A stretch of 64,000 nucleotides of DNA. Source: Patescibacteria group bacterium. GTDB taxonomy: Bacteria; Patescibacteriota; Minisyncoccia; Phycocordibacterales; Phycocordibacteraceae. A program made the translations under genes and the position numbers. The stretch is from NCBI GenBank assembly GCA_018826905.1, contig JAHJYC010000005.1, positions 46,681 to 110,680 on the forward strand, in the 5' to 3' direction. The notes under the pieces were generated by a model. It saw only the letters and a program-made list of their open reading frames with translations. It was not told the origin of the DNA and did not search any database. Position 1 is the stretch's first letter. Every line of letters begins with the position of its first letter. This document shows positions 2 through 21,558 of this stretch, in pieces.

Positions 2-3000
2 ACAGACGATGATATTGTTCTAGGTTCCGGTCTCTACCTTCAAAACAGCGGAACAGTATACGGAAGCCAGTTAGTTAATCTATCTAGCGGCGATAATGCC
101 GCGGTCGGGGTTCCAAGCACAGGCGTGGTGATTAATCGGAATATAGCAGACGCGAACTCGGCGTTGCTGGTCTCACAGGTCCACGCAGGCTCGACAGGAG
201 ATATCGTGCAATTCCTAAACAGCGCAGGGGCGCAAGTAGTCATCAAGCAAAGCGGGAATGTTGGTATCGGCACCACCTCGCCGTCCTACCCGCTTGCAGT
301 TGAAGGGGACATAAATGCAAACGGCAAGTACCGCGTAAACGGAACACAGGTGCTCTACCTTCCGAATCAGACAAGCCTCACGGGCTCATTGATCTATGGA
401 AATGGAGGAAACTCGCTCTCTAACACTTCTGGAAACGAAGGACGTTACAACACTGGCCTTGGCCTCGGTGCGTTAACTGCAATGACCACGGGTAGCTTCA
501 ATACTGCTATCGGACAAAACGCCCTTGAAGACACCACTACGGGAACATTCAACGTAGGTCTCGGCGGCTCAGCGTTGTTCCAGAACATAACTGGTTCATT
601 TAACTTGGCCATCGGCTACTCAGCACTTGGTGGTTCAACAAGCAACAGTTCTACTGTAGCAATTGGTACTCAGACCGGTGACCGCGTGACTGCTGACGGC
701 GGAACCTATATTGGTCATCAAGCAGGACGTGGAGCTTCTACGTACTCATCCACCGGAACCACTGCCGTAGGTTTCCAGGCTGGTTCAATCGGAACACCAG
801 GAAACTACAACACCTTCCTTGGGTACCGTGCCGGATATATTGTCACTGGCGCAACGAACACATTGCTCGGCTATCAGGCAGGAGACAATGTAACGTCAGG
901 TTCAAATAACATTGTTATTGGAAACAACATTGACGCTCCTTCCGCAACGGCAAGTAACCAATTGAATATTGGAAACATAATCTTTGGTACTACTATCTCA
1001 GGAACCGGTACTACTCTCTCAACAGGAAATATTGGTATCGGCACCACAAACCCTCTTGCAAAACTTGTTGTTGTTGGAGGCAATGCGAACTCGTTCCGGA
1101 TAGATAACGCAGGAGAACAGTATACGTCTATGGACTACTACAATGCAGGTAGTTCCAAGGCAACCACCTACTACGATAATTCAGGCGCTGAGTTTGTAAT
1201 GCGTACAACTGGATCAGCAAGTATTGGCTTTGATACGAACCTCACCCGAAAAATGACGATAACGAGTGCAGGCAACGTTGGTATCGGTACCACGACGCCG
1301 GGCACCCTCTTGTCTATTAGCGGGTCAAGTGCTGCTCTTACTATAACGGATACACGAGACGTCACTGGATCTATCGGAGATGTGGTGAACAGCATTGATT
1401 TCAGGAGTAATGACGCTAGTAATCTTCTCGCAGGCGCAGTACGTACAAAGATAAGTAGTGTTGCAGAGGACATCTACTGGTCTCAGACGGGACTGGCATT
1501 CTCAACGCATAATGGAACAACACTTTCAGAAAAGTTACGAATCACTAATGCAGGCAGCGTTGGTATCGGTACAACGACTCCACAAGGTCAAATGCATGTA
1601 ATTGGGAACATTTTTGCAACCGGCTCAAATGGTGCAGGGGGGCCTGGTGGACTTGGTCTCGTCGCTATTCCAGGCTCTCCTATATCAGGGCGCCTTACGT
1701 ACGGTACAGATGGCACTGGGTGGATGTTCAGAATCGCAAAGAATCAGGGAGGTACTGTTACAGACCAATTTACTATCGTAGACAATGGAAACGTCGGTAT
1801 TGGTACCACAAGTCCAATTTCAACACTCCATGTAGAGAACACGATAGGGACGGCCTCAACGCAGCTCTCTATAGTAAATGGGGTGAGTAGCGACTTCACT
1901 GGTAGTTCCATCTTGCTTCAGTCAGCAAACACTGCACGAGGTAACGGTATATTCTCACTAAACGGTTCCTCAGAATGGTACATGGGTACTCCGTACTCTA
2001 ATGATGTGTTTACCATAGCTCGGTCTGCTACTGCGACACACTCAAATGCAACTGCGCAGCTGACAAATAGTCTTCTAACAATATATCCTACGGGCAAGGT
2101 CGGTATCGGTACATCAACTCCAGCAACAACGCTTGATGTGTACTCCAGTGGCAACACGGGGCTTCAGGTGGGCGGGCCTTCCACTGCAAGTCCATATATT
2201 CAATTGAATCAGGGGGCAGTGACAAGAGCATTTATGCAGTACAATAATGCTGGAGGCTATACTGAATATTACTCTTCGGCTCCACACTACTTCTCAACGA
2301 GTAATGTTGGTATCGGCGACACCTCTCCTGACGCCAAGTTGGATATTCTCCAAGCAAGCGATACATCCGCACAAGGTTTCCAGATAAGTCGCTCAAATGA
2401 TACGGATTATACAAGACTCTACATGTCAGCAGGTGTCGGCTCACTTAGCGATACCCTCATCTTTAATACTTCCTTCGGAGGAGATGTTGCTGCAATTGGC
2501 AGGGATGGAAGTGCATACTTTGCCGGCAACGTTGGCATTGGTACAGCGAGCCCTACAAAAAAGCTGCTAGTTGCAACGAACACAGTAAATGGAGACGGTA
2601 TCACTGTGGTCAATGGGAGCACCGGTTCATATCTCACTCTTGAGGCAAATGGTGCAACCGGCTTTGGTGTTAGTAAGTGGGCACACTCTACGGTGCTGGA
2701 GGCGGTTCCTTCCTCAACAGGAGGATTAGTGCTCGGTGCGTACACAGGGGATATAACCTTCCAGACATCAGGCAGAAGCAACAGCATGACTATACTCGAG
2801 AACGGCAACGTCGGTATCAATAACACGAGCCCTTCTTATAGATTTACGGTCTCAGACTCTACATCAAGCGGTATAGCAGGACGATTTGCGCAAGGCGGTC
2901 TAGGTAGTCCGTTCGGTATCTATGCAACTGCTTCAGGGGCGGGTACGCAGAACACAGCGGGATACTTCCAGGCAGGTAGTGCAACAACCAACATTGGAGT

Positions 3001-5197
3001 GAACGCAGATGTGGCAGTGGGCGCAAATAATTACGCTATCTATGCAGGAAACACAGCCAAGTCATACTTTGCTGGCAACGTTGGTGTTGGGCCTGCCTCT
3101 CCACTTTCTAAATTGCATGTTTCAGCAACTGCAGCTGCAAGTATGACCCTTGGTTCTCCTACAGGTGTAGGTCTCACAGTTTCTCCAACTGGAGGCGGCT
3201 ACGGTCTTAACTTTGGAGCAAACTCTGATGGAAAGTCTTGGATTCAAGGAGGACGTGTTGATGGAACTGCAACTGCATACAACATTAGTATGCAGGCGGC
3301 AGGCGGTAACGTCGGTATCGGTACCACAAACCCTTCAGGAATGCTCACTGTCGGTGGTGTCCAGAGCGGTAATGCAGGTCTTGAAATTGTCCCAGGATCG
3401 GGTATTACGATGCAGGCGTATAATCGCACGAGCGTTGCCTATGCTTCTTTGAGTCTAGACGGAACAGCAATCAACATGCGCCCAAGCGGAACAATCATGG
3501 CAATAGTTAACGGAAGCGGACTTTTTGTATCAAACCTTGTCTCTTGTGGAGGTGTGCAGACAAACGGCTCAGGACTCATGAGCTGTACGTCAGATGAAAA
3601 CCTTAAGGATGTAGAGAGTGAATTCACTTCTGGCCTTACGGCAATCCGTGGCATTACCCCACAGACCTACACATGGAAGGAGGGAACTGAGTACTTTGAT
3701 GGAGGAATCCAGTACTCAGGATTCATTGCGCAGAACGTAGGAGCAAATATCCCTGAAGCGATGTCTACAGGCGCAAGTGGATTCAAGCAAATCAACACCA
3801 CGACAATCCTTGCAGCATCTGTGAACGCAATTAAAGAACTGGGAGACCGTACTGACTCGCTTTCGCTCGCGACCTCAACACTCGCTTCACGCCTCACCGT
3901 ACTTGAAGCAGCATCGTCAACACCAAAGGCTGTTGCGGCAACTGACCTTACAGCAACAGGCATCATTGTGACGGGGAATGGCTCCTTCACAGAAACAGTG
4001 TCCGCAAAGCGCTTCACTGTTGCAAACATAGAGCAGAGCTTCTCAATAGGAAGCACCACTGTATCAGTTGAGCTCCCTTCAAATGTACTCACTACTACAG
4101 GAAATGCAGACCTCTATAAGGTTGCTACGTACGCTATTGCAAAAGTACAAGCACTTGCAGACAGAACAGATCTTCTTGCGACTCGTATTGATTCAATTGA
4201 GTCTCGTTTGGTTGCACTTGAGAACGCGACTACTTCAGTTACAAGTATTGCGACCGGCACTCTTGATCTTGCAACAACAACAATCAAACAAGCACTCCGC
4301 AGCCTCGGCATTATGATTGAAGACGGTATCGCGCAGTTCCAGACACTGGTCTTCCGTCAGCTCGCAGTGTCTCAAGACGAAGACGGTGCATCGTCTGCAG
4401 GACAAGAAACTATCCTAGAAGGGAACACTGCCGTAAGGGTGGAAAACCAGTTTGTGCTCACAACTTCAAAGATCTTCGTTACCTTCACGAGTCCTGTTGA
4501 GGGCGCGTGGTACATCAGCAACAAAGAGCAGGGAAGCTTCAGGGTTACACTTGAACGTGCACAATCTTCAGATGTAAGCTTTGACTACTTCATCCTTCAG
4601 ACTGAAGGCCAGCTCGCTTCACCTGCCGGTGCTCCGCAACCAGTACAACAACCGGCGCCGCTTCCAGCAGTACCGCCAACCTCAGATCAGCAGGGAGGAA
4701 ATGAAGGAGGTACTTCAGCACCAGAAAACACCTCTGGAGACACAACTGCCCCACAGATAACATTGAACGGACAAGCAGCAAGAGAAATCACAAAGGGAAG
4801 TAGTTGGACTGATCCAGGAGCAACTGCAACAGATGAGACTGATGGAGATCTCACGGCAGCTATACAAAAAACAGGCTCTGTAGATACAAATACAGTAGGC
4901 ACCTACACAATCTCTTACTCCGTCTCTGATGCCGCAGGAAACGAGGGCCACGTATCACGCATTGTGACTGTTAAGGAAGGTACAACTTCAGGATCTGGTA
5001 CTACTCCAGCTCCAGCACCTACCCCGGCTCCAGCTCCAGCACCTGAGCCAACACCCGAACCTGCGCCAGCTCCTGCCCCTGCGCCAGCACCTACCCCGGC
5101 TCCAGCTCCCGCTCCCGCGCCTGCACCAGCTCCTGCCCCTGCGCCAGCACCTACCCCGGCTCCGGCTCCAGCTCCCGCGCCTGCACCAGCAGCGTAG
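2..5197 (+). CDS. Giant surface / tail-fibre-like repeat protein, 5' truncated by the window edge. It carries about 11 GNVGIGTTxP...L repeats, an internal peptidase-S74 intramolecular-chaperone domain (SDENLKDV autocleavage motif, ~3590-3960), a coiled coil, a DUF5011-like Ig domain (~4740-4975) and a C-terminal (PAPAPT)n tail.
   Basis: The reading frame is open from base 2 with no upstream stop; the ORF track gives 125..5197. The NVGIGTTSP/NPLAKL-type motif recurs through the first ~3.3 kb. 'SDENLKDVESEF...TYTWKEGTEYFDGGIQYSGFIAQNV' matches the endosialidase / T5 pb1-type chaperone-of-endosialidase domain. Confidence 0.75.
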   Translation, partial: TDDDIVLGSGLYLQNSGTVYGSQLVNLSSGDNAAVGVPSTGVVINRNIADANSALLVSQVHAGSTGDIVQFLNSAGAQVVIKQSGNVGIGTTSPSYPLAVEGDINANGKYRVNGTQVLYLPNQTSLTGSLIYGNGGNSLSNTSGNEGRYNTGLGLGALTAMTTGSFNTAIGQNALEDTTTGTFNVGLGGSALFQNITGSFNLAIGYSALGGSTSNSSTVAIGTQTGDRVTADGGTYIGHQAGRGASTYSSTGTTAVGFQAGSIGTPGNYNTFLGYRAGYIVTGATNTLLGYQAGDNVTSGSNNIVIGNNIDAPSATASNQLNIGNIIFGTTISGTGTTLSTGNIGIGTTNPLAKLVVVGGNANSFRIDNAGEQYTSMDYYNAGSSKATTYYDNSGAEFVMRTTGSASIGFDTNLTRKMTITSAGNVGIGTTTPGTLLSISGSSAALTITDTRDVTGSIGDVVNSIDFRSNDASNLLAGAVRTKISSVAEDIYWSQTGLAFSTHNGTTLSEKLRITNAGSVGIGTTTPQGQMHVIGNIFATGSNGAGGPGGLGLVAIPGSPISGRLTYGTDGTGWMFRIAKNQGGTVTDQFTIVDNGNVGIGTTSPISTLHVENTIGTASTQLSIVNGVSSDFTGSSILLQSANTARGNGIFSLNGSSEWYMGTPYSNDVFTIARSATATHSNATAQLTNSLLTIYPTGKVGIGTSTPATTLDVYSSGNTGLQVGGPSTASPYIQLNQGAVTRAFMQYNNAGGYTEYYSSAPHYFSTSNVGIGDTSPDAKLDILQASDTSAQGFQISRSNDTDYTRLYMSAGVGSLSDTLIFNTSFGGDVAAIGRDGSAYFAGNVGIGTASPTKKLLVATNTVNGDGITVVNGSTGSYLTLEANGATGFGVSKWAHSTVLEAVPSSTGGLVLGAYTGDITFQTSGRSNSMTILENGNVGINNTSPSYRFTVSDSTSSGIAGRFAQGGLGSPFGIYATASGAGTQNTAGYFQAGSATTNIGVNADVAVGANNYAIYAGNTAKSYFAGNVGVGPASPLSKLHVSATAAASMTLGSPTGVGLTVSPTGGGYGLNFGANSDGKSWIQGGRVDGTATAYNISMQAAGGNVGIGTTNPSGMLTVGGVQSGNAGLEIVPGSGITMQAYNRTSVAYASLSLDGTAINMRPSGTIMAIVNGSGLFVSNLVSCGGVQTNGSGLMSCTSDENLKDVESEFTSGLTAIRGITPQTYTWKEGTEYFDGGIQYSGFIAQNVGANIPEAMSTGASGFKQINTTTILAASVNAIKELGDRTDSLSLATSTLASRLTVLEAASSTPKAVAATDLTATGIIVTGNGSFTETVSAKRFTVANIEQSFSIGSTTVSVELPSNVLTTTGNADLYKVATYAIAKVQALADRTDLLATRIDSIESRLVALENATTSVTSIATGTLDLATTTIKQALRSLGIMIEDGIAQFQTLVFRQLAVSQDEDGASSAGQETILEGNTAVRVENQFVLTTSKIFVTFTSPVEGAWYISNKEQGSFRVTLERAQSSDVSFDYFILQTEGQLASPAGAPQPVQQPAPLPAVPPTSDQQGGNEGGTSAPENTSGDTTAPQITLNGQAAREITKGSSWTDPGATATDETDGDLTAAIQKTGSVDTNTVGTYTISYSVSDAAGNEGHVSRIVTVKEGTTSGSGTTPAPAPTPAPAPAPEPTPEPAPAPAPAPAPTPAPAPAPAPAPAPAPAPAPTPAPAPAPAPAPAA
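4984..5194 (+). repeat. Coding tandem repeat: imperfect 60-bp units (at least two near-identical copies at ~5068-5127 and 5128-5187) encoding a (PAPAPT)n low-complexity tail.
   Basis: Direct repetition of 'agctcctgcccctgcgccagcacctaccccggctcc(a/g)gctcc...' is visible in the sequence. It is translated as TPAPAPAPAPAPAP... Confidence 0.8.
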
Positions 5198-6279: not shown

Positions 6280-6819
6280 ATGATGACGGAAAGACTTAAT
6301 TCCCGTCAAAAAGGATTCACCCTGATAGAGCTACTTGTTGTTATCGCTATCATTGGTCTTTTGTCTTCCGTTGTTCTTGCGTCACTGAATACAGCGAGAG
6401 TTAAGTCACGAGATGCAAAACGCATTCAGGATCTTACCAGTATTAGGACTGCGCTTGAACTGCATTTTCTGGACAGAGGATATTATCCGCAATCGGGATG
6501 CGGATGGGACTGTAACGGGTATCGGTACAGCTACGACTCCTCGTGGACAACGCTTGCAGCTGATCTTGCTCCTTACATAAAGCAACTACCAGTAGATCCA
6601 TTGAATGCTCCAGGGTGCGGCCCATGGGGTAATGGGTGCTACACCTATGCCTATGGAAATGTTGGAAGAAATACCTATCCACACCAGTATGACCTCACGG
6701 CACAACTTGAAGACCCTACTAGTTCGCACCGATGTTCTGTAAAGGGATACCTGTTTTATTTCAATAATCAGCCGTGGTGTGGAGGGTACTCTGGACAGAT
6801 ATATGAAGCTTCAAGATAA
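6280..6819 (+). CDS. Type IV pilin-like / pseudopilin protein with a prepilin-type N-terminal cleavage-methylation domain.
   Basis: 'KGFTLIELLVVIAIIGLLSSVVLASLNTAR' class-III signal peptide with a G^F cleavage site. Confidence 0.8.
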   Translation: MMTERLNSRQKGFTLIELLVVIAIIGLLSSVVLASLNTARVKSRDAKRIQDLTSIRTALELHFLDRGYYPQSGCGWDCNGYRYSYDSSWTTLAADLAPYIKQLPVDPLNAPGCGPWGNGCYTYAYGNVGRNTYPHQYDLTAQLEDPTSSHRCSVKGYLFYFNNQPWCGGYSGQIYEASR

Positions 6820-8306: not shown

Positions 8307-9185
8307 GTGCATGGTATTCTCTATATAATGTCACGTACTGATACTGAGCTCGCTCTACTTGATACAAAAGCCGCAGCAATACGCGAAACAATTCTAGACA
8401 TGCTTGTTGCGGCAGGCTCAGGACATACTGCAGGGCCCTTAGGTATGGCAGATATCTTCGCTGCCTTTTATTTTGATGTACTTGTGCATGACCCGAAGAA
8501 TCCAGAATGGGAAGAGAGAGACCGGCTACTGCTCTCCAATGGACATATTGTACCGGTACAGTACGCCACCATGGCGCATTCGGGGTATTTTCCTGTAGAA
8601 GAATGCCTCACGCTCCGCAAGTTTGGCAGTCGTCTGCAAGGACACCCTGAACGAGACCGGTTGCCGGGCCTTGAGACAACATCTGGCCCGCTTGGGTCAG
8701 GACTTTCTCAAGCCTCTGGTATGGCATACGCATTTCGAATGGATGGAAAGAAAAATCGTGTGTACTGCTTGATGTCAGATGGAGAGCAACAGGAAGGAAA
8801 CATATGGGAAGCAGTTATGTTTGCAGGCAAGAACCGTCTCTCAAATCTTACGGCTGTTATGGACCGCAACAACATTCAGATAGACGGAATGACAGAAGAC
8901 GTTATGCCGCTGGAGTCTTTAGCAGCAAAATACGAAGCATTCAACTGGCATGTTCTTGAGGTAAACGGACACAACATCTCAGAATTTATTGATGCCGTTG
9001 AAACAGCAAAGGCAGTGTACGAGAAACCAACACTCATCATTGCACACACAATTCCAGGGAAAGGAGTTCCTGAGATTGAGTTTGACTACAAGTGGCACGG
9101 AAAGCCACCCTCAAAGGAAGAAGCAAAGCGCTTTATTCAGCAATTACGCTCGGGAGCGGGAAGGGTGCCGAACGAGTATGCCTAA
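8307..9185 (+). CDS. tkt: Transketolase N-terminal subunit (thiamine-diphosphate-binding half of a split transketolase).
   Basis: 'GSGHTAGPLGMADIFAAFYF...LLSNGH' TPP-binding motifs. 292 aa, which is half-length. An alternative start is ATG 8328. Confidence 0.85.
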   Translation: MHGILYIMSRTDTELALLDTKAAAIRETILDMLVAAGSGHTAGPLGMADIFAAFYFDVLVHDPKNPEWEERDRLLLSNGHIVPVQYATMAHSGYFPVEECLTLRKFGSRLQGHPERDRLPGLETTSGPLGSGLSQASGMAYAFRMDGKKNRVYCLMSDGEQQEGNIWEAVMFAGKNRLSNLTAVMDRNNIQIDGMTEDVMPLESLAAKYEAFNWHVLEVNGHNISEFIDAVETAKAVYEKPTLIIAHTIPGKGVPEIEFDYKWHGKPPSKEEAKRFIQQLRSGAGRVPNEYA

Positions 9186-9729
9186 GAGAGGATTCACACT
9201 CATAGAACTTCTCGTTGTTATTGCAATTATCGGCATTCTTTCTTCAGTGGTGCTTGCTTCTTTGAATACTGCTCGCGAGAAAGCAAAAGTAGCAAACGCA
9301 GTGTCTCAACTAAGACAGTTTCGTAATGTGGTGGCGTTGTATTTTACGGACACCGGACAGTATCCTGCAGGGTGTGGACTAAGTTGCACAGCGAGTACTG
9401 ACCCGTATTTAAATGCACTTGGTGTTCCTGGGTGGAACGGCCCGTATTTTGCAGGTGGTGTGTGGAATCTAGAACACCCATGGGGAGGACACTTCACCAT
9501 AGACAGTGCTGACCTTACGGGAGACGGTCAGCCAGAGATGTATTTCTTTCTGGACGAGGATGCACCAGGAACCAATAGTAGCGACAACACGGGAATCATA
9601 CCGTTGTCTGCTCTCCTTGCCATTGATAAAACTCTTGATGATGGAGATCTTGCAACAGGAAACTTGCGTGGCAATGGACTTGGCTTTACCTCAGCCGTAG
9701 GGGAGTTGGTGTACGCACCTCAATTTTAA
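9178..9729 (+). CDS. Type IV pilin-like protein (prepilin N-terminal domain).
   Basis: 'MPKRGFTLIELLVVIAIIGILSSVVLASLNTAREKAK'. ATG 9178 overlaps the tkt-N stop by 8 bp. The ORF-track upstream extension was rejected. Confidence 0.8.
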   Translation: MPKRGFTLIELLVVIAIIGILSSVVLASLNTAREKAKVANAVSQLRQFRNVVALYFTDTGQYPAGCGLSCTASTDPYLNALGVPGWNGPYFAGGVWNLEHPWGGHFTIDSADLTGDGQPEMYFFLDEDAPGTNSSDNTGIIPLSALLAIDKTLDDGDLATGNLRGNGLGFTSAVGELVYAPQF

Positions 9730-13048: not shown

Positions 13049-13285
13049 ATGGCTGTTGAATTTAATGAGCCTACCTATACCGCATCTCAGACTGTAGGTG
13101 CAGCGCGCAAACCATCCCTCTTTGTAAGAATCATCTTGAAAACAGGTCTTGCAAAGGATGTGGCACAGGCAGAAAAAGTCCTCCTTATACTGATTTGCGC
13201 CGCATTCCTTGCGGCCCTAGGTATATTTTTTGTAAGTAGCTCTGGAACTTCAGGAGTAGTCCCACTTCCAGAACCGATACTATGA
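13049..13285 (+). CDS. Small single-TM membrane protein, a paralog of 6842..7093 and 42355..42594. It lies immediately upstream of a pilin gene.
   Basis: '...EFNEPTY...ARKPSLFVRIILKTGLAKDVAQAEKVLLILICAAFLAALGIFF...VVPLPEPIL'. A 4-bp ATGA overlap joins it to the next gene. Confidence 0.5.
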   Translation: MAVEFNEPTYTASQTVGAARKPSLFVRIILKTGLAKDVAQAEKVLLILICAAFLAALGIFFVSSSGTSGVVPLPEPIL

Positions 13286-13764
13286 ACAGAAGGAGAAGCG
13301 GATTTACTCTCATAGAGCTTCTCGTGGTGATAGCCATAATTAGTCTGTTGTCTTCTGTGGTGATTGCCTCTCTAAATACCGCACGACTTAAGGGTAGGGA
13401 AGCAAAGCGCCAAGCTGAAATTGCATCAGTTATGCGAGCAATTAGTCTCTATAGGCTAGACAATCCAGGGAGCTACCCACCCATTGGGGGCGACTTGCAT
13501 GGATGTACTACAAACACCTGTTTATCAGTGCTCACCGACGAACTGGTGCCCAAGTACATACAAGAAATTCCCATGGACCCAAAATTTGGTAATACGAGCA
13601 CCGGATATAGGTATTGCAGGAGTGGTTCATACCCAAACGAATATGCAATTTTAAGGCAGAGTGAAAAGACAGGAGCATGGTGTTCGGTCCAAACACCGGC
13701 TCCGGTATCGGGAACATTTTGCTGGCATACTGCAGGGGTGCCTACGTATCCGCGCTGCAATTAA
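13282..13764 (+). CDS. Type IV pilin-like protein.
   Basis: 'SGFTLIELLVVIAIISLLSSVVIASLNTARLKGREAKRQAE'. Confidence 0.8.
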   Translation: MNRRRSGFTLIELLVVIAIISLLSSVVIASLNTARLKGREAKRQAEIASVMRAISLYRLDNPGSYPPIGGDLHGCTTNTCLSVLTDELVPKYIQEIPMDPKFGNTSTGYRYCRSGSYPNEYAILRQSEKTGAWCSVQTPAPVSGTFCWHTAGVPTYPRCN

Positions 13765-14515: not shown

Positions 14516-15853
14516 ATGCGAAGATATTTTGTCCTCCCGCTCATACTAGGTGCATTGCTATTAGGTCCTGCACTGCTTTTTGCACAAAGTACTGATTTAA
14601 CAGCGCAAGAGCGTGCGGCGCTTGAACGACAGCTTGCACAGCTTGAGGCTGATATGAAAAAGACGCAGGCTACTATTGATACGCTCTCCTCACAAGGAGA
14701 ATCATTGCAGCGAGACATTGCTATCTTGGATGGAGAAATCAAGAAAGCAAAGTTGCAGGTGCAAACTACTGAAGTTGAAATACGTGCACTCTCTGCAGGT
14801 ATTGTTGTGCACGGGAAAACAATTAACAATCTCTCTGCAAAACTAATTCGCGAAAAGGATTCCCTTGCGCAGATTATTCGCAAAACTGATGCGCTTGACG
14901 AGTACACACTTGTTGAAGCAGTGCTCTCAACAGAAGATCTCTCTGATTTCTTTGCGGATCTAGATTCCTTTGCAAGCATTAAGGCTGCGATGCGGGAATC
15001 GTTTGAAGAGCTTCGCGATACCCGTCAAAAAACAGAAAAAGAAAAGACGGGGCTAGAAGGAGCACGTACTGATCAACAAATACTTAAGTCCGCTCTTTTG
15101 TTGAACCAACAGAAGGTGCAAGCGAAAGAAGCGGAAAAGAAGAAACTACTTGCAGAAACAAAAGGACAGGAGAGTCAGTACCGCCAGCTAAAGTCAGCAC
15201 AGGAACAGACAGCTGCACAGATACGCGCAAAGTTGTTCCCGTTGCGAGACACCAGTGGTATCCAGTTCGGACAGGCTGTTGAGTATGCAAAAACGGCATC
15301 TCGTATAACGGGTGTGCGTCCCGCACTCATTCTTGCAATTCTTTCCCAAGAATCTGATCTTGGAAAGAACGTAGGACAGTGTCTTATAACAAGTCTTGAG
15401 ACAGGAGACGGAAAGGGAAAGAACACAGGAACACCGTTCCCTGGCACCATGAAAGTACCGAGAGACACAGTACCGTTCGCACGCCTCATGAAAGCGGCAG
15501 GACGTGATTGGGCAAACACACCGATATCCTGTCCGCTTCCTGGAGGGTACGGAGGCGCTATGGGACCAACGCAGTTTATTCCTTCAACATGGGAGATGTT
15601 TGAAGGAAAAATAAAGAGCGCACTTGGTGTTGCCGCAGCTGATCCATGGAATGCACTTCATGCAATTACTGCTACGGGACTCTATCTTGCTGACGTGGGT
15701 GCTACATCGGGTACGTATATTGCTGAGCATACTGCTGCCGCTCGCTACTATGCAGGAGGAAACTGGGCTACTTCTGGGCAGGGGTATGGAAACAGTGTGA
15801 TGTCAAAAGCTGCAGCCTTCCAGAAAGACATTGATTTCTTGAACGCTAACTAA
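14516..15853 (+). CDS. Secreted coiled-coil protein with a C-terminal MltB/Slt35-like lytic transglycosylase domain.
   Basis: Signal peptide 'LLLGPALLFAQS'. A long heptad-rich coiled coil (~residues 30-230). C-terminal 'ILSQESDLG...GAMGPTQFIPSTW' matches the ES catalytic motif and the GxMGxxQFMPxTW motif of MltB-type transglycosylases. Confidence 0.7.
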   Translation: MRRYFVLPLILGALLLGPALLFAQSTDLTAQERAALERQLAQLEADMKKTQATIDTLSSQGESLQRDIAILDGEIKKAKLQVQTTEVEIRALSAGIVVHGKTINNLSAKLIREKDSLAQIIRKTDALDEYTLVEAVLSTEDLSDFFADLDSFASIKAAMRESFEELRDTRQKTEKEKTGLEGARTDQQILKSALLLNQQKVQAKEAEKKKLLAETKGQESQYRQLKSAQEQTAAQIRAKLFPLRDTSGIQFGQAVEYAKTASRITGVRPALILAILSQESDLGKNVGQCLITSLETGDGKGKNTGTPFPGTMKVPRDTVPFARLMKAAGRDWANTPISCPLPGGYGGAMGPTQFIPSTWEMFEGKIKSALGVAAADPWNALHAITATGLYLADVGATSGTYIAEHTAAARYYAGGNWATSGQGYGNSVMSKAAAFQKDIDFLNAN

Positions 15854-16044: not shown

Positions 16045-16437
16045 ATGCTCACTATTTCTTTCGCCATGCACATTCTCCGATCCAAACCAGCAATCATTAG
16101 TTTCATAGTGCTGGCATTGGCCGTGCTAGGGCTTCTATACTATTTCCTTATTTTTAAGGAAACAAACCCAAAATCAGTGACTCTCCATACCTACGTCTGT
16201 AGTGATGGATCGTACTATTTCATGCGTGTTGACGACAAAGCGATTGAGGTTGCTGGTGTGCGATACGAGCTTGTTTCAGAAGAGGAAGGTATGCGCTACG
16301 AGGGAACAGGACCGATGGCGTTTACAATTAACGCTCCAGCTCTCAACGTATCGCTTAGAGAATCGGGTGAGGTGATAGCCGCATGCGAGCAAGGTTCAGT
16401 TGAAAGCACTCCCATTCTTGAACTGAAAAATATATGA
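16045..16437 (+). CDS. Hypothetical small membrane-anchored secreted protein (two Cys). It is downstream of, and probably co-transcribed with, the transglycosylase gene.
   Basis: N-terminal TM helix, 130 aa, 4-bp ATGA overlap with the following gene. A weak resemblance to MliC-type lysozyme inhibitors is speculative. Confidence 0.45.
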   Translation: MLTISFAMHILRSKPAIISFIVLALAVLGLLYYFLIFKETNPKSVTLHTYVCSDGSYYFMRVDDKAIEVAGVRYELVSEEEGMRYEGTGPMAFTINAPALNVSLRESGEVIAACEQGSVESTPILELKNI

Positions 16438-18272
16438 CACACATAACTACCGTATCCTTTTTGCATATGAACCGTTCATTCATCTTTCTATTTGTTTTCG
16501 CTTCCTTCTTTTTCGCTCTTGCAACACCACAGGCTCAAGCTTGTCGGTTTACCTGTTCTGTTGGCTCTGGAGGCTACATAGAGACTGGTCCAGGGCGCAC
16601 GGTCTGCCATGCCGGGGATACAGGAGGTGTTGATGCAGCCTGGGAAGGGTGTGATGAGGGGGGTGGCAATGATAGTGGAGGAGGAGGAGGGGGCGGAGGT
16701 GGAGGAGGGGGCGGCAGTAATCCCGACCTTACCGCAAGCGGTATCTCTCCACAGTCAGCAACAGTTGGATTTTCACAGACATATTCTGCGACTATCACGA
16801 ATGGAACTTCGGGGTTTGCGGGCGCGTCAGTTGCTCTCTTCCAGAAGGCAACCAACTCAAGCGGTGCAAATGCGGAAAACATCGGAACTGCCACAACTGA
16901 AAGCCTCGGTGGCGGCGCTTCTAGGAATGTCTCTTTGAGCTATACGCAGGGTTCTGTTGGTACGTTCTACATGAGAGCGTGTGCTGATACCAATAATGCA
17001 GTCGCTGAGACCAGTGAGAGCAATAACTGTGGTCCGTGGACCGCTGTAAACATTCAGCAGGTAACATCTGGCTCAGCGTGTGCGGTAACCACTACGGTCG
17101 GGCAACCAACGCCCTTTACGTTTGATGCAACAGGAAACTTTGCTCCAAGAAACGAAGTACGGTTTGTTGTACGTTGGCAGGGCACTTCTCCTAGTTACTA
17201 CCCTGACGACACGACGTGGTTCACCTCACTTCCTCAGGTCATATCAAATACTTGGAATGCGCCAGGGACATATACCATGACAGCGAGTGCCATGAGTAAT
17301 ATTGCTGGCGGGGGGTTTGCTGACCCGGTCGCTGTCTCAATTAATGGCTCCGGGTACGCTGTGAATCAATCTTGTGTCGTTACGGTGCAGGGTAATGAAA
17401 ACCTACCCGACCTTACGGCAGGGAGCATCTCTCCAACAACAGCACGAGTTGGGCAATCGGTTGCGCTCTCTGGAACAGTTACAAATATAGGAGCGGCTGT
17501 TGCTCCTGCCAGTAACACCTACTTCAGAATCTTGAATAGTGGAGGAAAGCAAATCTACCAAAACACGGTAAATATACCTGCAATACAGCCGAGTGCAGGG
17601 GACACGCGTTCAGTCTCCTACACCTTTACTGCAGAAGGAACGTATCAAGCGCAAATCTGTGGAGACTGGTTTGGATCAGTTACAGAATCAAACGAGAACA
17701 ATAACTGTGGTCCGCTTACCCCGATTAGCGTAACCAGCATCGTGAATGCGAATACCGTGTCTTGTTCAGTAAGTAATACGAATGTAAATCCTGGCGGGTC
17801 AGTAACCTACACAGCAATTCCTTCAGGAAGTGCGACAGGTCCATATACTTGGGTTGCGGACGACGGAGCTACAGGGTTTGGGACTAACGGGACGGCAACA
17901 CGTACCTTTGCTACTGCTGGTAACTACGGCATGCAGGTCTCTGCGACGGTTACCAGTCCTGCACAATGTCCAATTGTTACCGTTGCTGCGTGTGTAGGAA
18001 CACCTACCGTAGAGATTACAGCCACTCCAGCTCGTGTGCGGTCAGGGAGTACAACTACCCTGCGATGGTCAGGAACTGCCATAAACAACACCTGTACTAT
18101 CACGGGTCCTGGCGTGTCTCAAACTGTGTCTGCAGCCTCGTGTACCGTTCCTGAAGGAACTACAAGTTCCGGTACTATCACTACACAGAGTACGTACAGT
18201 ATTAGTTGTGATAACGGAGCAGTTACTGATTCTGTTATCGTGAACGTTATCCCTGAGTTTGAAGAGTTTTAA
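16434..18272 (+). CDS. Secreted surface protein with a poly-Gly tract, two CARDB-like domains (ending 'ESNxNNCGP') and an Ig-like Cys-pair domain. The C-terminus reads ...IVNVIPEFEEF.
   Basis: Signal peptide. 'GGGNDSGGGGGGGGGGGGG'. CARDB motifs 'DLTA.GISP...VTN.G...ETSESNNCGP'. 612 aa. Confidence 0.75.
   Translation: MTHITTVSFLHMNRSFIFLFVFASFFFALATPQAQACRFTCSVGSGGYIETGPGRTVCHAGDTGGVDAAWEGCDEGGGNDSGGGGGGGGGGGGGSNPDLTASGISPQSATVGFSQTYSATITNGTSGFAGASVALFQKATNSSGANAENIGTATTESLGGGASRNVSLSYTQGSVGTFYMRACADTNNAVAETSESNNCGPWTAVNIQQVTSGSACAVTTTVGQPTPFTFDATGNFAPRNEVRFVVRWQGTSPSYYPDDTTWFTSLPQVISNTWNAPGTYTMTASAMSNIAGGGFADPVAVSINGSGYAVNQSCVVTVQGNENLPDLTAGSISPTTARVGQSVALSGTVTNIGAAVAPASNTYFRILNSGGKQIYQNTVNIPAIQPSAGDTRSVSYTFTAEGTYQAQICGDWFGSVTESNENNNCGPLTPISVTSIVNANTVSCSVSNTNVNPGGSVTYTAIPSGSATGPYTWVADDGATGFGTNGTATRTFATAGNYGMQVSATVTSPAQCPIVTVAACVGTPTVEITATPARVRSGSTTTLRWSGTAINNTCTITGPGVSQTVSAASCTVPEGTTSSGTITTQSTYSISCDNGAVTDSVIVNVIPEFEEF
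17406..18272 (+). repeat. Copy A of an ~870-bp dispersed duplication (~85% nt identity to 20689..21558). It encodes a CARDB domain plus an Ig-like domain plus the IPEFEEF terminus.
   Basis: Visual alignment of the two segments. The protein identity is about 90%. Confidence 0.85.
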
Positions 18273-19278: not shown

Positions 19279-21558
19279 ATGACTTCTTCACGCAGCTTTC
19301 CATTGCATATAGCATTCCTAATAGCGTCATTGGTTGCTTTGAGTGGTTTCTTGATGCCGCTTACTACGCATGCGCTCCCTCCCTCAGAAGCTGAGATAGA
19401 TGATGGGGGAGATGGTGGAGGAGGAGGAGGTGGTGGAGATGAGGGATACACGACGCCAACAGTAAGTATCACAGCGTCTCCGTCTAGCATACAGAGCGGT
19501 TACTCTTCTCAACTAAGCTTTAACTCGTCAGGCGTAACACGGTGCGTAATTGATAATGGCATCGGTGCCGTGTCCTCAAATATTGGCGGCACGCGTGTAG
19601 TATCTCCGACTCAATCAACCACGTACAGAATTAGCTGTGATGCACCACTGGAAGTCGTTACCGATGAAGTGATTGTTAACGTGGCACCTGCGCCGACACC
19701 ACTCACTGCATACTGCGAAGCTGGTCCGGACACTGCACAAATCAATGAAACCGTGCAGTGGAGTGCGACCCATTCAACAGGCTCTTCATCTGGTCTTGTC
19801 TGGCAGCAAGGCGCTTCATTTACCACAAAGATCTGTTCAGGAGGACAAAATTACCAATCATTGAACAGAACGTGTTCTGACGATGTTATGAACGGAGACG
19901 CTTGTTCAGTTGAGGGTCAACGTTGTAGACAGAGTGCGGGTTGTGATGGAGATACCTATACAGATGGCGAAGGTCAGCCTAATGCACATACTCAGTACGG
20001 AAGTGTTACGCCCTTCACTTGCGTTGCTTCTGGTCCTAGTAATGCTACCTACTCCTACGCATGGACGGGAACAGATGGGCTCACTGGAGCAACACAAGCA
20101 GTTTCAAAGGCATATGCCACTGCTGGAGAGAAGACCGGCCGCGCGACGGTAACACGAAGTACTGGTGGGTCGGCAAGCGCAAGTTGTACGGCACAAATTA
20201 GTCCAAGGACTCCAACAGCAACGCTAACAGCAAACCCGTCGTCTATTACGGCTGGTTCTCCATCAACACTTACGTGGAGTTCAACAAATGCGAATGCCTG
20301 TACGTTGAACGAGAGTATTGGATCTGTGTCTACTTCTGGTACCCGCTCAGTTTCTCCAGGTTCAACAACAACGTACACACTCATGTGTACAGCACCTTCC
20401 ACAGCTGTGTCTGGTACATGGCAATACAGAGGAAGTGATATAAGCGACTTTGCTTGCGTGCAGCCTGGCAATAACATAACTGATACCAATAAGGCGTATT
20501 CAAGTGTTCCGAACTGTCCAAGCAACCCGCAAGGAAAGGCCTGTAGCACTACTGGGGCATGTAAAGTGAATACAGTTCAGGGCTGCAACATTCATACGGA
20601 TATCTATGAGTGTTCAGGCTCATCTTCAAGTCCCGCGCAGTCTGCTACAGCCTCTGCGACTGTAACTGTTACCGCAACACCAACGCTCCCAGATCTCACG
20701 GCAGGGAGCATCTCGCCAACAACAGCAAGAACTGGCCAAGCAACATCGCTCTCTGGGACAGTTACAAACATAGGAGGAGCTGTTGCACCCGCAAGCAATA
20801 CGTACTTCAGAATCTTGAATAGTGGAGGGAAGCAGGTGTATCAAAACACGGTAAATATACCGGCCGTACAACCTGGATCTGGTGATACACGCTCAATCGC
20901 GTACACCTTTACTGCAGAAGGAACGTATCAGGCACAAGTGTGTGGAGACTGGTTTGGATCAGTTACGGAATCAAATGAGGGTAACAACTGTGGTCCGCTC
21001 ACACCAATTAGTGTAACGAGCATCGTGAACGCGAATACTGTGTCTTGTTCAGTGAACAACACAAGCATCAACCCCGGCGGGTCAGTAACGTACTCGGCAA
21101 CTCCTTCAGGAAGCGCAACCAGTCCATATACTTGGGTTGCAAATGATGGAGCTACAGGGTTTGGGTCTGGTGCTACTGCAACCCGCACCTTCACTGCTGC
21201 AGGTAACTACGGCATGCAAGTATCAGCCACAGGCGCCACAGCCCCTGCACAATGCCCGGTAGTCTCTGTTGCCGCGTGTGTAGGAACACCGACCGCTGAA
21301 ATAACAGCCACTCCAGCTCGTGTACGTTCAGGAGGTACAACTACTCTTAGATGGACGGCAAGTGCCATTAACACCTCGTGTACTATCACAGGCCCCGGTG
21401 TGTCCCAAACAGTATCCGCTGCCTCGTGTACCGTGCCGGAGGGAACAACTGGATCAGGAACCATTACAACCCAAAGCACCTATACAATTAGCTGCGACAA
21501 TGGGGAAATCACAGACTCCATTATCGTGAACGTTATTCCTGAGTTTGAGGAGTTTTAA
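19279..21558 (+). CDS. Secreted surface protein, a paralog of 16434..18272. It has a poly-Gly/Asp tract, three Ig-like Cys-pair domains, a Cys-rich central region and a C-terminal CARDB + Ig module ending IPEFEEF.
   Basis: Signal peptide. 'DDGGDGGGGGGGGDEG'. The C-terminal 290 aa are ~90% identical to the 16434 ORF. 759 aa. Confidence 0.75.
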   Translation: MTSSRSFPLHIAFLIASLVALSGFLMPLTTHALPPSEAEIDDGGDGGGGGGGGDEGYTTPTVSITASPSSIQSGYSSQLSFNSSGVTRCVIDNGIGAVSSNIGGTRVVSPTQSTTYRISCDAPLEVVTDEVIVNVAPAPTPLTAYCEAGPDTAQINETVQWSATHSTGSSSGLVWQQGASFTTKICSGGQNYQSLNRTCSDDVMNGDACSVEGQRCRQSAGCDGDTYTDGEGQPNAHTQYGSVTPFTCVASGPSNATYSYAWTGTDGLTGATQAVSKAYATAGEKTGRATVTRSTGGSASASCTAQISPRTPTATLTANPSSITAGSPSTLTWSSTNANACTLNESIGSVSTSGTRSVSPGSTTTYTLMCTAPSTAVSGTWQYRGSDISDFACVQPGNNITDTNKAYSSVPNCPSNPQGKACSTTGACKVNTVQGCNIHTDIYECSGSSSSPAQSATASATVTVTATPTLPDLTAGSISPTTARTGQATSLSGTVTNIGGAVAPASNTYFRILNSGGKQVYQNTVNIPAVQPGSGDTRSIAYTFTAEGTYQAQVCGDWFGSVTESNEGNNCGPLTPISVTSIVNANTVSCSVNNTSINPGGSVTYSATPSGSATSPYTWVANDGATGFGSGATATRTFTAAGNYGMQVSATGATAPAQCPVVSVAACVGTPTAEITATPARVRSGGTTTLRWTASAINTSCTITGPGVSQTVSAASCTVPEGTTGSGTITTQSTYTISCDNGEITDSIIVNVIPEFEEF
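20689..21558 (+). repeat. Copy B of the ~870-bp duplicated module.
   Basis: See 17406..18272. Confidence 0.85.

Follow-up and report, generated by a model that had tools for sequence, protein, structure and literature searches.

An internal Peptidase_S74 chaperone domain precedes a conserved C-terminal end-piece in a giant fibre protein of Patescibacteria

The 64,000-nucleotide stretch of DNA analysed here (contig JAHJYC010000005.1 of assembly GCA_018826905.1, positions 46,681 to 110,680 of the forward strand; hereafter the window) comes from a bacterium of the Patescibacteria, or Candidate Phyla Radiation (CPR), and begins within a very large gene of which positions 2-5197 are included. We found that this is a chromosomal gene of the bacterium and not a prophage gene, and that it probably encodes a giant, trimeric cell-surface fibre resembling phage tail fibres. 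The protein contains a genuine Peptidase_S74 intramolecular chaperone auto-cleavage (ICA) domain with an intact Ser1197/Lys1202 dyad. The region behind this domain, which we call the end-piece, appears from sequence searches to define a large family restricted to CPR bacteria. The S74/ICA domain type is already known; the CPR family and its post-ICA end-piece are apparently undescribed, as no published description of either was found in the literature on S74 proteins, CPR/Patescibacteria surface proteins and inteins.

The frame 2-5197 is open throughout, with 1731 codons free of internal stops and then a stop codon, as seen in the translation and in the mechanical list of open reading frames (ORFs). 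A first-pass annotation of this DNA had noted that the gene is truncated at the window edge, and indeed a 4165-amino-acid (aa) product is called for the fibre gene in a public record (contig JAHJYZ010000002.1, GCA_018826595.1, 121 kb), which was reached via the glyceraldehyde-3-phosphate dehydrogenase (GAPDH) protein. The window frame represents the C-terminal 1731 aa of this product, so that aa 1-1196 in the numbering used here correspond to ~aa 2435-3630 of the 4165. From the copy of the gene designated L001, 3309 residues were read, all stop-free and fibre-like, with a single S74 domain. Downstream of the fibre gene, the window encodes GAPDH, a pilin-like protein, RpiB, Rpe, a split transketolase, PfkB and an aldolase, and farther along DnaE, RpoB, RpoC, GyrB, SMC, ThrRS, PheT and RNase R, the rest of the window being core chromosome. 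The GC content is uniform, with no anomaly at the fibre gene, and no phage genes were detected across the 64-kb window or in the 10 kb upstream of a syntenic orthologue (L004). The fibre gene is not part of a phage structural (tail or baseplate) module, its neighbours being housekeeping genes. The first-pass annotation had allowed that upstream sequence might reveal an ordinary prophage tail module; the housekeeping context, both in the window and upstream of the L004 orthologue, speaks otherwise.

Several lines of evidence identify the S74 domain. Pfam Peptidase_S74 (PF13884) matched aa 1197-1254 with 31.0 bits, above the curated cut-off of 22 (E 3e-7). When a profile of 14 S74 segments from the family was compared with solved structures, it matched the tail fibre 8jov (E 7e-15), the long tail fibre distal subunit 6f45 (E 2e-14), the MyRF ICA domain 7dc3 (E 3e-11) and the neck appendage protein 3gud (E 2e-6); chain 3gud begins exactly at SDERHK, which was aligned with SDENLK of the window protein. 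An AlphaFold2 (AF2) model of aa 1180-1545, computed as a monomer with 33 homologues, had a predicted local distance difference test score (pLDDT) of 86-93 in the S74 region, and its top Foldseek match in the PDB was again the MyRF ICA domain (7dc3; E 5e-5, 124 columns). This monomer displays the ICA fold, a small beta 'donut' followed by a long coiled-coil helix, with the beta part at aa 1197-1262 and the trimerising helix behind it (AF2 helix aa 1266-1303). The first-pass annotation had placed an internal S74 chaperone domain at SDENLK and had proposed a comparison with S74, T5 pb1 and endoNF; the Pfam match, the matches to four solved intramolecular chaperone domains (ICDs), the fold of MyRF and the Ser-x4-Lys spacing all uphold this placement. 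A single-sequence phmmer search of aa 1101-1600 against the PDB returned a BAG domain as its sole match, which we regard as spurious (E 0.49).

The catalytic motif is intact. SDENLK has the Ser-x4-Lys spacing at the start of the domain, and alignment A3 shows no variation in its S, D, L or K. The same spacing was present in every one of the 123 family S74 copies whose N-terminal part is covered (106 internal copies with >150 aa after them and 17 terminal ones), with SD[EAQ]RLK as the family consensus. In the S74 profile search, the serine and lysine aligned with A587(S) and K592 of MyRF. Furthermore, Tyr1223 and Trp1225 of the window protein share profile columns with the two tyrosines of the MyRF 'HYRY' stretch, which we take to be Y615 and Y617, a numbering that is our own reading and not tool output. 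In MyRF, Y615 and Y617 have been named as important for cleavage, the S587A and K592A mutants are wholly uncleaved, S587 and K592 are the counterparts of S911 and K916 of endoNF, and the cut lies between P586 and S587 (PMC8326128). By analogy, the scissile bond of the window protein is predicted to be that between Thr1196 and Ser1197. A cut before Ser1197 would leave a C-terminal product of 535 aa; a large C-terminal part does follow the S74 domain, as the first-pass annotation had stated, and its size of ~540 aa is to be corrected to this value.

In MyRF, the C-terminal triple coiled coil of the ICA domain drives the trimerisation that switches on cleavage N-terminal of the serine, and the helix right behind the Pfam S74 match counts as part of the domain (PMC8326128). 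Since the first helix of the window protein (to ~aa 1305) accordingly belongs to the ICA domain, the extra part amounts to ~430 aa; extra modules are present after S74 as annotated, and the ~500 aa originally given for them had included the coil that is the ICA domain's own. The phmmer S74 envelope leaves 419 aa beyond it. The domain is not at the extreme C-terminus, as ICDs of the endoNF/T5 pb1 type are, with ~426 aa following ~aa 1305.

The long coiled coil, beta domain, DUF5011-like Ig domain and (PAPAPT)n tail that had been described after S74 were all recovered, by AF2, by Pfam and as a tandem repeat in the DNA (Table 1). Directly behind the ICA domain, aa 1306-1410 comprise a short beta stretch and then a 'GNADLYKVATY...RLVALE' helix (AF2 aa 1371-1408). 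To judge from sequence comparison, this region is a relic of a second ICA domain that has lost its catalytic N-terminal half, because the window's own S74 domain weakly re-matches aa 1373-1414 (phmmer, iE 0.022) and because in relatives such as P0003, P0009 and P0020 a second S74 is present in full, including a Ser-x4-Lys motif, and ends in this same helix (GVDLYKLATF in P0003 and P0009). At least two S74 copies were found in 20 of 111 family members.

The conserved beta-sandwich farther along resembles in its fold the C-terminal or receptor-binding domains of tailspikes and depolymerases, fibre feet and H-type lectins, and its BFVD matches were named 'K1 capsule-specific polysaccharide lyase C-terminal domain' and H-type lectin; as identities are only 7-20%, this is a resemblance of folds and not membership of a family. 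The Ig-like domain was recognised by PF16403 at aa 1586-1657 with 82.8 bits against a cut-off of 27 (E 1.9e-23). The (PAPAPT)n tail contains no sorting signal or transmembrane (TM) segment. At the DNA level, this Pro/Ala tail consists of imperfect 6-, 18-, 36- and 60-nt tandem repeats (5004-5190), and since the tail of the L004 orthologue differs in length and composition, the repeat is probably length-variable. NCBIfam gave no meaningful match for the fibre protein, and no enzymatic or toxin domain was detectable in the end-piece with Pfam and NCBIfam. One relative (P0021) is named a trimeric autotransporter adhesin in JGI; for the window protein we rejected this assignment, as Pfam shows no YadA-type anchor in it and it has no hydrophobic or beta-barrel C-terminus, ending in a Pro/Ala repeat.

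Table 1. Features of the fibre protein encoded at the start of the window (residues counted from the window edge, nucleotide positions from the first letter of the window).
Feature	Residues (aa)	Positions	Strand	Basis
Fibre shaft, ten GNVGIGTTxP-headed units and beta-roll-like repeats	1-1196	2..3589	+	Motif count, PHROG matches
Peptidase_S74/ICA intramolecular chaperone auto-cleavage domain	1197-1305	3590..3916	+	Pfam, profile, Foldseek, AF2
Catalytic motif SDENLK	1197-1202	3590..3607	+	Ser1197 codon 3590-3592, Lys1202 codon 3605-3607
Linker and relic of second ICA copy	1306-1410	3917..4231	+	phmmer self-match; relatives with complete second S74
Linker with short helix (AF2 aa 1428-1443) and conserved GIAQF motif	1411-1453	4232..4360	+	AF2; conservation 42-54%
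Conserved six-stranded beta-sandwich	1454-1537	4361..4612	+	AF2 strands aa 1466-1532, pLDDT ~95
Pro/Gln-rich linker	1538-1581	4613..4744	+	Sequence; low conservation
Ig-like domain (Bact_surface_Ig-like, formerly DUF5011)	1582-1657	4745..4972	+	Pfam PF16403
(PAPAPT)n low-complexity tail, stop codon 5195-5197	1658-1731	4973..5197	+	Translation; DNA tandem repeats 5004-5190

The family was delineated by searching aa 1360-1545 against 1.84 billion cluster representatives, with family clusters taken at 50% identity. This yielded 395 representatives at E<=1e-3 and 145 at E<=1e-30, from proteins of up to 7275 aa, in which the end-piece match always lay 50-450 aa from the C-terminus. The window protein fits the definition of this family, with a DLYK coiled coil and the conserved beta-sandwich near its end and a self-processing domain before them, and the layout of S74 ahead of a conserved end-piece seems, from these sequences, to be common to hundreds of undescribed CPR proteins. 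The first-pass annotation had called this architecture unusual, which holds by comparison with characterised phage fibres. An internal ICA domain is not unprecedented, however, because MyRF has one, and across the family's clusters, at least 395 in number, it is the rule. In GTDB species representatives the end-piece is encoded at 101 loci, the best 80 of which all belong to Patescibacteria or to metagenome-assembled genomes (MAGs) labelled only 'bacterium'; the lineages named among these 80 were Paceibacterota, Kaiserbacteria, Parcubacteria, Nomurabacteria, Minisyncoccia and Saccharibacteria-labelled MAGs. GAPDH was encoded downstream at 57 of 69 loci in these genomes, and synteny with gap, rpiB, rpe and tkt is kept across many CPR species. 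No tblastn match to the end-piece was found in 50,697 phage records. In the databases, family members are named hypothetical, 'DUF5011 domain-containing' or 'tail fiber domain-containing' proteins.

A self-cleaving chaperone directly ahead of the end-piece is a nearly constant feature of the family. Among members with at least 350 aa upstream of the end-piece, 105 of 111 had one: S74 in 87, Peptidase_G2 (PF11962) in 17 and both in one (P0158); on P0114, for instance, Peptidase_G2 scored 27.3 bits at aa 2315-2508. As it occupies the same position before the end-piece in ~15% of members, Peptidase_G2 appears to be functionally interchangeable with S74 in this family. At species level, where 65 loci had at least 1.5 kb upstream of the end-piece, S74, Peptidase_G2 and/or an intein was found within 1.5-2 kb upstream at 63 of them: S74 only at 41, Peptidase_G2 only at 10, S74 plus an intein C-half at four, S74 plus Peptidase_G2 at two and an intein C-half only at six. 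P0089 (5473 aa) carries four S74 domains, starting at aa 1481, 2648, 3736 and 4927 and thus ~1100 aa apart, each with SD[SEM]RLK; if all of them cut, the product would be a polyprotein of several fibre segments. Additional distant S74 copies were also seen in P0141 and P0100.

Two syntenic relatives have the gene split at this very junction. At L014:1-5011 and L015:2-4958, the fibre gene is fractured, with the break falling precisely between the first S74 and the end-piece: the fibre ORF ends with S74, an intein N-half (Cys1, TxxH block) and a stop codon; three or four ORFs follow, one of them for a 415-419-aa PD-(D/E)XK nuclease that has a zinc ribbon and another, in L014, for a Bro-N protein; and the last ORF encodes an intein C-half (...FAHN/T) fused to the end-piece. 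The splicing residues Cys1, TxxH and HN/T are all intact, and these loci probably represent a natural split intein in a surface-protein gene. In addition, 19 cluster representatives begin with an intein C-half, and in the species-level sample the N-half was found upstream at 9 of 10 loci. That the end-piece would be rejoined via a split intein in these relatives suggests that its covalent attachment to the fibre matters at least transiently. L014 and L015 match the fractured genes of Dassa et al. 2009 (PMC2677866) in having split intein halves and a free-standing nuclease, but here the gene encodes a surface fibre instead of a protein of replication or nucleotide metabolism, and the nuclease is of another family. 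The window gene, in contrast to L014 and L015, is an uninterrupted allele. Between the end-piece gene and gap, L014 encodes a 23S_rRNA_IVP/bAvd-like four-helix protein (L014:5051-5431) and L015 a Y1 (IS200-type) transposase (L015:5024-5611); this junction seems to attract mobile elements.

We read the N-terminal end of the fibre from the L004 orthologue because upstream extension of the window gene gave no match: the start of L001 had no exact-DNA match in the GTDB representative genomes, and the 4165-aa product was not among the matches of a homology search that used the 500 aa upstream. The orthologue (3484 aa, L004:7379-17833, on a 674.6-kb metagenome contig) was found via the similarity of its N-terminal part, independently of the end-piece. 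It shares the C-terminal architecture of the window protein, and it is flanked by SecA, Obg, GatB and a small HTH_17 protein upstream and by GAPDH downstream. Its N-terminus (L004:7379-7830) comprises an HTH_17 domain (34 bits against a cut-off of 27), a charged helix and a hydrophobic helix at ~aa 125-150. Among the 45 family members with a length of 2800 aa or more, most likewise have a helix-turn-helix (HTH)-like N-terminus and a hydrophobic segment at ~aa 75-155, and no TM-quality hydrophobic segment was found in the 1731-aa window fragment (hydropathy maximum 1.45). With HTH_17 and one membrane helix at the start of the orthologues, the rest of the protein would be exported and its C-terminus would lie far from the cell; we thus infer a membrane-anchored fibre with its N-terminus inside and its C-terminus outside. 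HTH_17 is an excisionase/MerR-like DNA-binding-type domain, located here at the cytoplasmic terminus of the giant fibre, and ToxR-like signalling is one possibility. The small gene directly upstream of the L004 fibre gene (L004:5846-6751) encodes an HTH homologous to that of the fibre, with 40% identity over 40 aa.

Conservation varies strongly along the protein. Between the window protein and the L004 orthologue, identity is 16-26% in the fibre shaft, the least conserved region, and 23% in the relic linker; it reaches 44-47% in the S74 domain and rises further to 61% in the second coil, 74% in the beta-sandwich and 79% in the Ig domain. Phage ICDs are generally more conserved than the fibres they fold, and the variable shaft and conserved C-terminal block seen in this alignment match such a chaperone pattern.

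With a somewhat better than even chance, in our estimate, the chains form a trimer through their C-terminal ends, after which the fibre folds, S74 cleaves the bond between Thr1196 and Ser1197, and the end-piece separates from the membrane-anchored fibre. The C-terminal block would be exported last, and its coiled coils would put three chains in register. Folding of the fibre, nucleated by the ICA domain as it is in phage fibres and MyRF, would then proceed in the N-terminal direction. Once trimeric, the ICA domain would cut before Ser1197, giving a mature fibre that is anchored in the membrane and ends in ...GLMSCT, along with a separate C-terminal fragment of the size given above. The end-piece would thus be an enlarged detachable pro-region or cap, whose covalent link may be needed only during export and folding. 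After the cut, the fragment may be discarded, may be kept non-covalently as a lectin/Ig tip, or may be released and persist as a small lectin-like trimer. We consider an enlarged chaperone or cap the most likely role of the end-piece because two unrelated chaperones alternate ahead of it, because the dyad is universal and because the shaft is variable and the C-terminal block conserved.

Several observations weigh against this interpretation. No known ICD is nearly as large or as well conserved as the end-piece, whose lectin-like and Ig domains are typical of adhesive tips; this fits a functional distal head kept on the fibre at least equally well. Two of the 65 species-level loci have no self-processing domain. 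The ranking of regions by conservation was identical in the mean over 54 same-architecture members (MAFFT, fast settings), but these figures are biased, as the sample was recruited with the end-piece itself, and only the orthologue comparison is unbiased. Cleavage between Thr1196 and Ser1197 is deduced from sequence and analogy; the AF2 model covers a single chain, and the trimer, with the way the cleavage strand threads in it, is a prediction; and the HTH and TM segments were read in orthologues, L001 covering 3309 of the 4165 aa, with ~856 N-terminal aa beyond it.

A possible, though on balance doubtful, alternative is that the fibre keeps its head. The ICA domain would then serve as a nucleus for folding and trimerisation, with no cut or no separation, and the coil, sandwich and Ig domain would stay in place as a host-binding adhesin tip. 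This would suit the resemblance of the sandwich to the receptor-binding or C-terminal domains of tailspikes, the R2 pyocin fibre and H-type lectins, the occurrence of DUF5011 Ig-like domains in surface adhesins, of which they are typical, and the position of the end-piece as the most conserved part; moreover, the joining of the end-piece to the fibre by an intein in the fractured relatives suggests that it is needed there. However, the Ser-Lys dyad is present in all 106 internal S74 copies, and in characterised systems this dyad serves cutting only. The replacement of S74 at the same position by the non-homologous Peptidase_G2 likewise argues that processing itself is selected, and since both coils are on the end-piece side of the cut, nothing covalent would hold the end-piece after cleavage. 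The same evidence for cleavage applies equally if the cut mainly serves to free the end-piece as a secreted trimeric lectin or effector, with the fibre as its carrier for export and folding. Such a polyprotein is suggested by relatives with as many as four S74 domains at intervals of ~1100 aa, all bearing SDxRLK (P0089), which looks like serial processing into several products. Nevertheless, we judge it unlikely: the end-piece lacks a detectable enzymatic or toxin domain, the Pro/Ala tail and the Ig domain are structural, and no free-standing end-piece with its own signal peptide was seen, short matches being contig fragments or intein-C fusions.

The remaining explanations concern the origin and the N-terminal end of the protein. 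The orthologues have HTH_17, a membrane helix and an ICA domain on the same polypeptide, as would a MyRF-like membrane-bound transcription factor whose self-cleavage frees the N-terminal HTH for gene regulation. Yet the order in the orthologues is HTH, TM (~aa 100-140), more than 3000 aa of fibre and then ICA; the ICA domain thus sits on the other side of the membrane, separated from the HTH by thousands of residues, and cannot release it by cutting. The TM position in the orthologues sets the protein apart from this type, making the idea very improbable. Even less credible is an ordinary prophage or phage-derived tail fibre gene in a bacterial contig. The repeats do resemble PHROG tail-fibre families, S74 is best known from phage fibres, and NCBI calls some relatives 'tail fiber domain-containing protein', but against this stand the lack of phage genes noted above, the gap, rpiB, rpe and tkt synteny across many CPR species, the start of the orthologues with HTH and TM instead of a baseplate-attachment domain, the absence of the end-piece from the phage records searched and the uniform composition. 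More speculatively, and in our opinion quite improbably, the whole could be a CPR-specific contact device, in which a membrane-tethered HTH regulator of ToxR-like topology carries a long trimeric fibre with a lectin/Ig cap that is shed or unlatched by the phage-derived chaperone. If so, tip maturation or host contact would be coupled to release of a lectin-like trimer, possibly with signalling via the fibre to the HTH, and some lineages would add the cap in trans by a split intein or cut several fibres from one polyprotein.

The protein can be compared with several known systems. With the phage ICDs (ICD/CIMCD; MEROPS S74; 3gud, 6f45, 8jov) it shares the domain, by profile and fold, and the SDxxxK motif; in the phage proteins, too, the domain lies directly C-terminal of a repetitive fibre and is followed by a helix forming a trimeric coiled coil. 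Endosialidase endoNF of coliphage K1F and T5 pb1 are further examples of such phage ICDs. In contrast, the phage domains form the extreme C-terminus and are discarded, whereas ~430 more and better conserved residues follow here, and they are carried by virion components, whereas the carrier here would be a cellular membrane-anchored protein of 4165 aa. The ICA domain of MyRF/MrfA (7dc3), the best structural match, is also internal with domains C-terminal of it, and it shares a chain with a DNA-binding-type domain and a TM helix, as in the fibre orthologues. However, the order is DNA-binding domain, ICA, TM in MyRF and HTH, TM, fibre, ICA in the fibre, which has no Ndt80 domain, and a cut in the fibre would free the extracellular end-piece and not the HTH. 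Peptidase_G2, of which the phi29 pre-neck appendage protein gp12 is the type example, occupies the same junction in relatives, but it is not homologous to S74 and is not present in the window protein. The beta-sandwich was compared with K1 lyase 7w1c, K64-1 S2-4 9k4a, Pam1 7eea, the R2 pyocin fibre foot and H-type lectins; in the tailspikes and depolymerases the sandwich precedes the chaperone domain, whereas in the fibre it follows it.

To our knowledge, host attachment of CPR/Patescibacteria is largely unknown outside a few Saccharibacteria; a fibre of this kind could mediate it, as the first-pass annotation had proposed for an episymbiotic CPR cell. The fibre gene takes up ~12.5 kb of a genome that is likely well under 1 Mb, as related contigs and one complete genome measure 0.58-0.99 Mb, and it encodes a conserved, syntenic giant surface protein found in many Paceibacteria-type genomes. 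Phage fibre-assembly chemistry (S74, Peptidase_G2) would here be reused in a cellular, membrane-anchored setting. The location of the best conserved part after the cleavage site inverts the phage logic, and it comes with the simple prediction of a cut between Thr1196 and Ser1197. Three interchangeable self-processing modules at one junction, with a split intein in a surface-protein gene, may also be of interest to protein engineers.

The shaft contains ten copies of the motif G[NSKT][VIM]G[IV][GND], at aa 85, 342, 424, 518, 596, 698, 842, 935, 1025 and 1102, and these GNVGIGTT-type motifs are spaced 77-257 residues apart, with a block of short beta-roll-like repeats at ~aa 130-330. It matched the PHROG tail-fibre families phrog_9942 (E 5e-26) and phrog_18345 (E 1.6e-16), a similarity that concerns the resemblance of the repeats only. 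The GNVGIGTT-type fibre units reported by the first-pass annotation for the N-terminal side were thus confirmed by motif count and by PHROG. Just ahead of the predicted cut, Cys1182 (3545-3547) and Cys1195 (3584-3586) lie 13 residues apart (LVSCGGVQTNGSGLMSC, then TS); the pair is kept in some relatives (P0081, P0018, P0025, P0034) and missing in the L004 orthologue, and it may form a disulphide at the tip of the mature fibre.

Other predicted surface proteins are encoded nearby. Three small type-IV-pilin-like genes with an N_methyl motif (window 6280-6819, ~9178-9729 and 13282-13764) are scattered among the genes for glycolysis and the pentose-phosphate pathway that immediately follow the fibre gene; this arrangement is also present in L001, and the first of the three in L004. 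Two more predicted surface proteins with CARDB and PKD domains (window 16434-18272 and 19279-21558) adjoin an SLT-domain protein (14516-15853).

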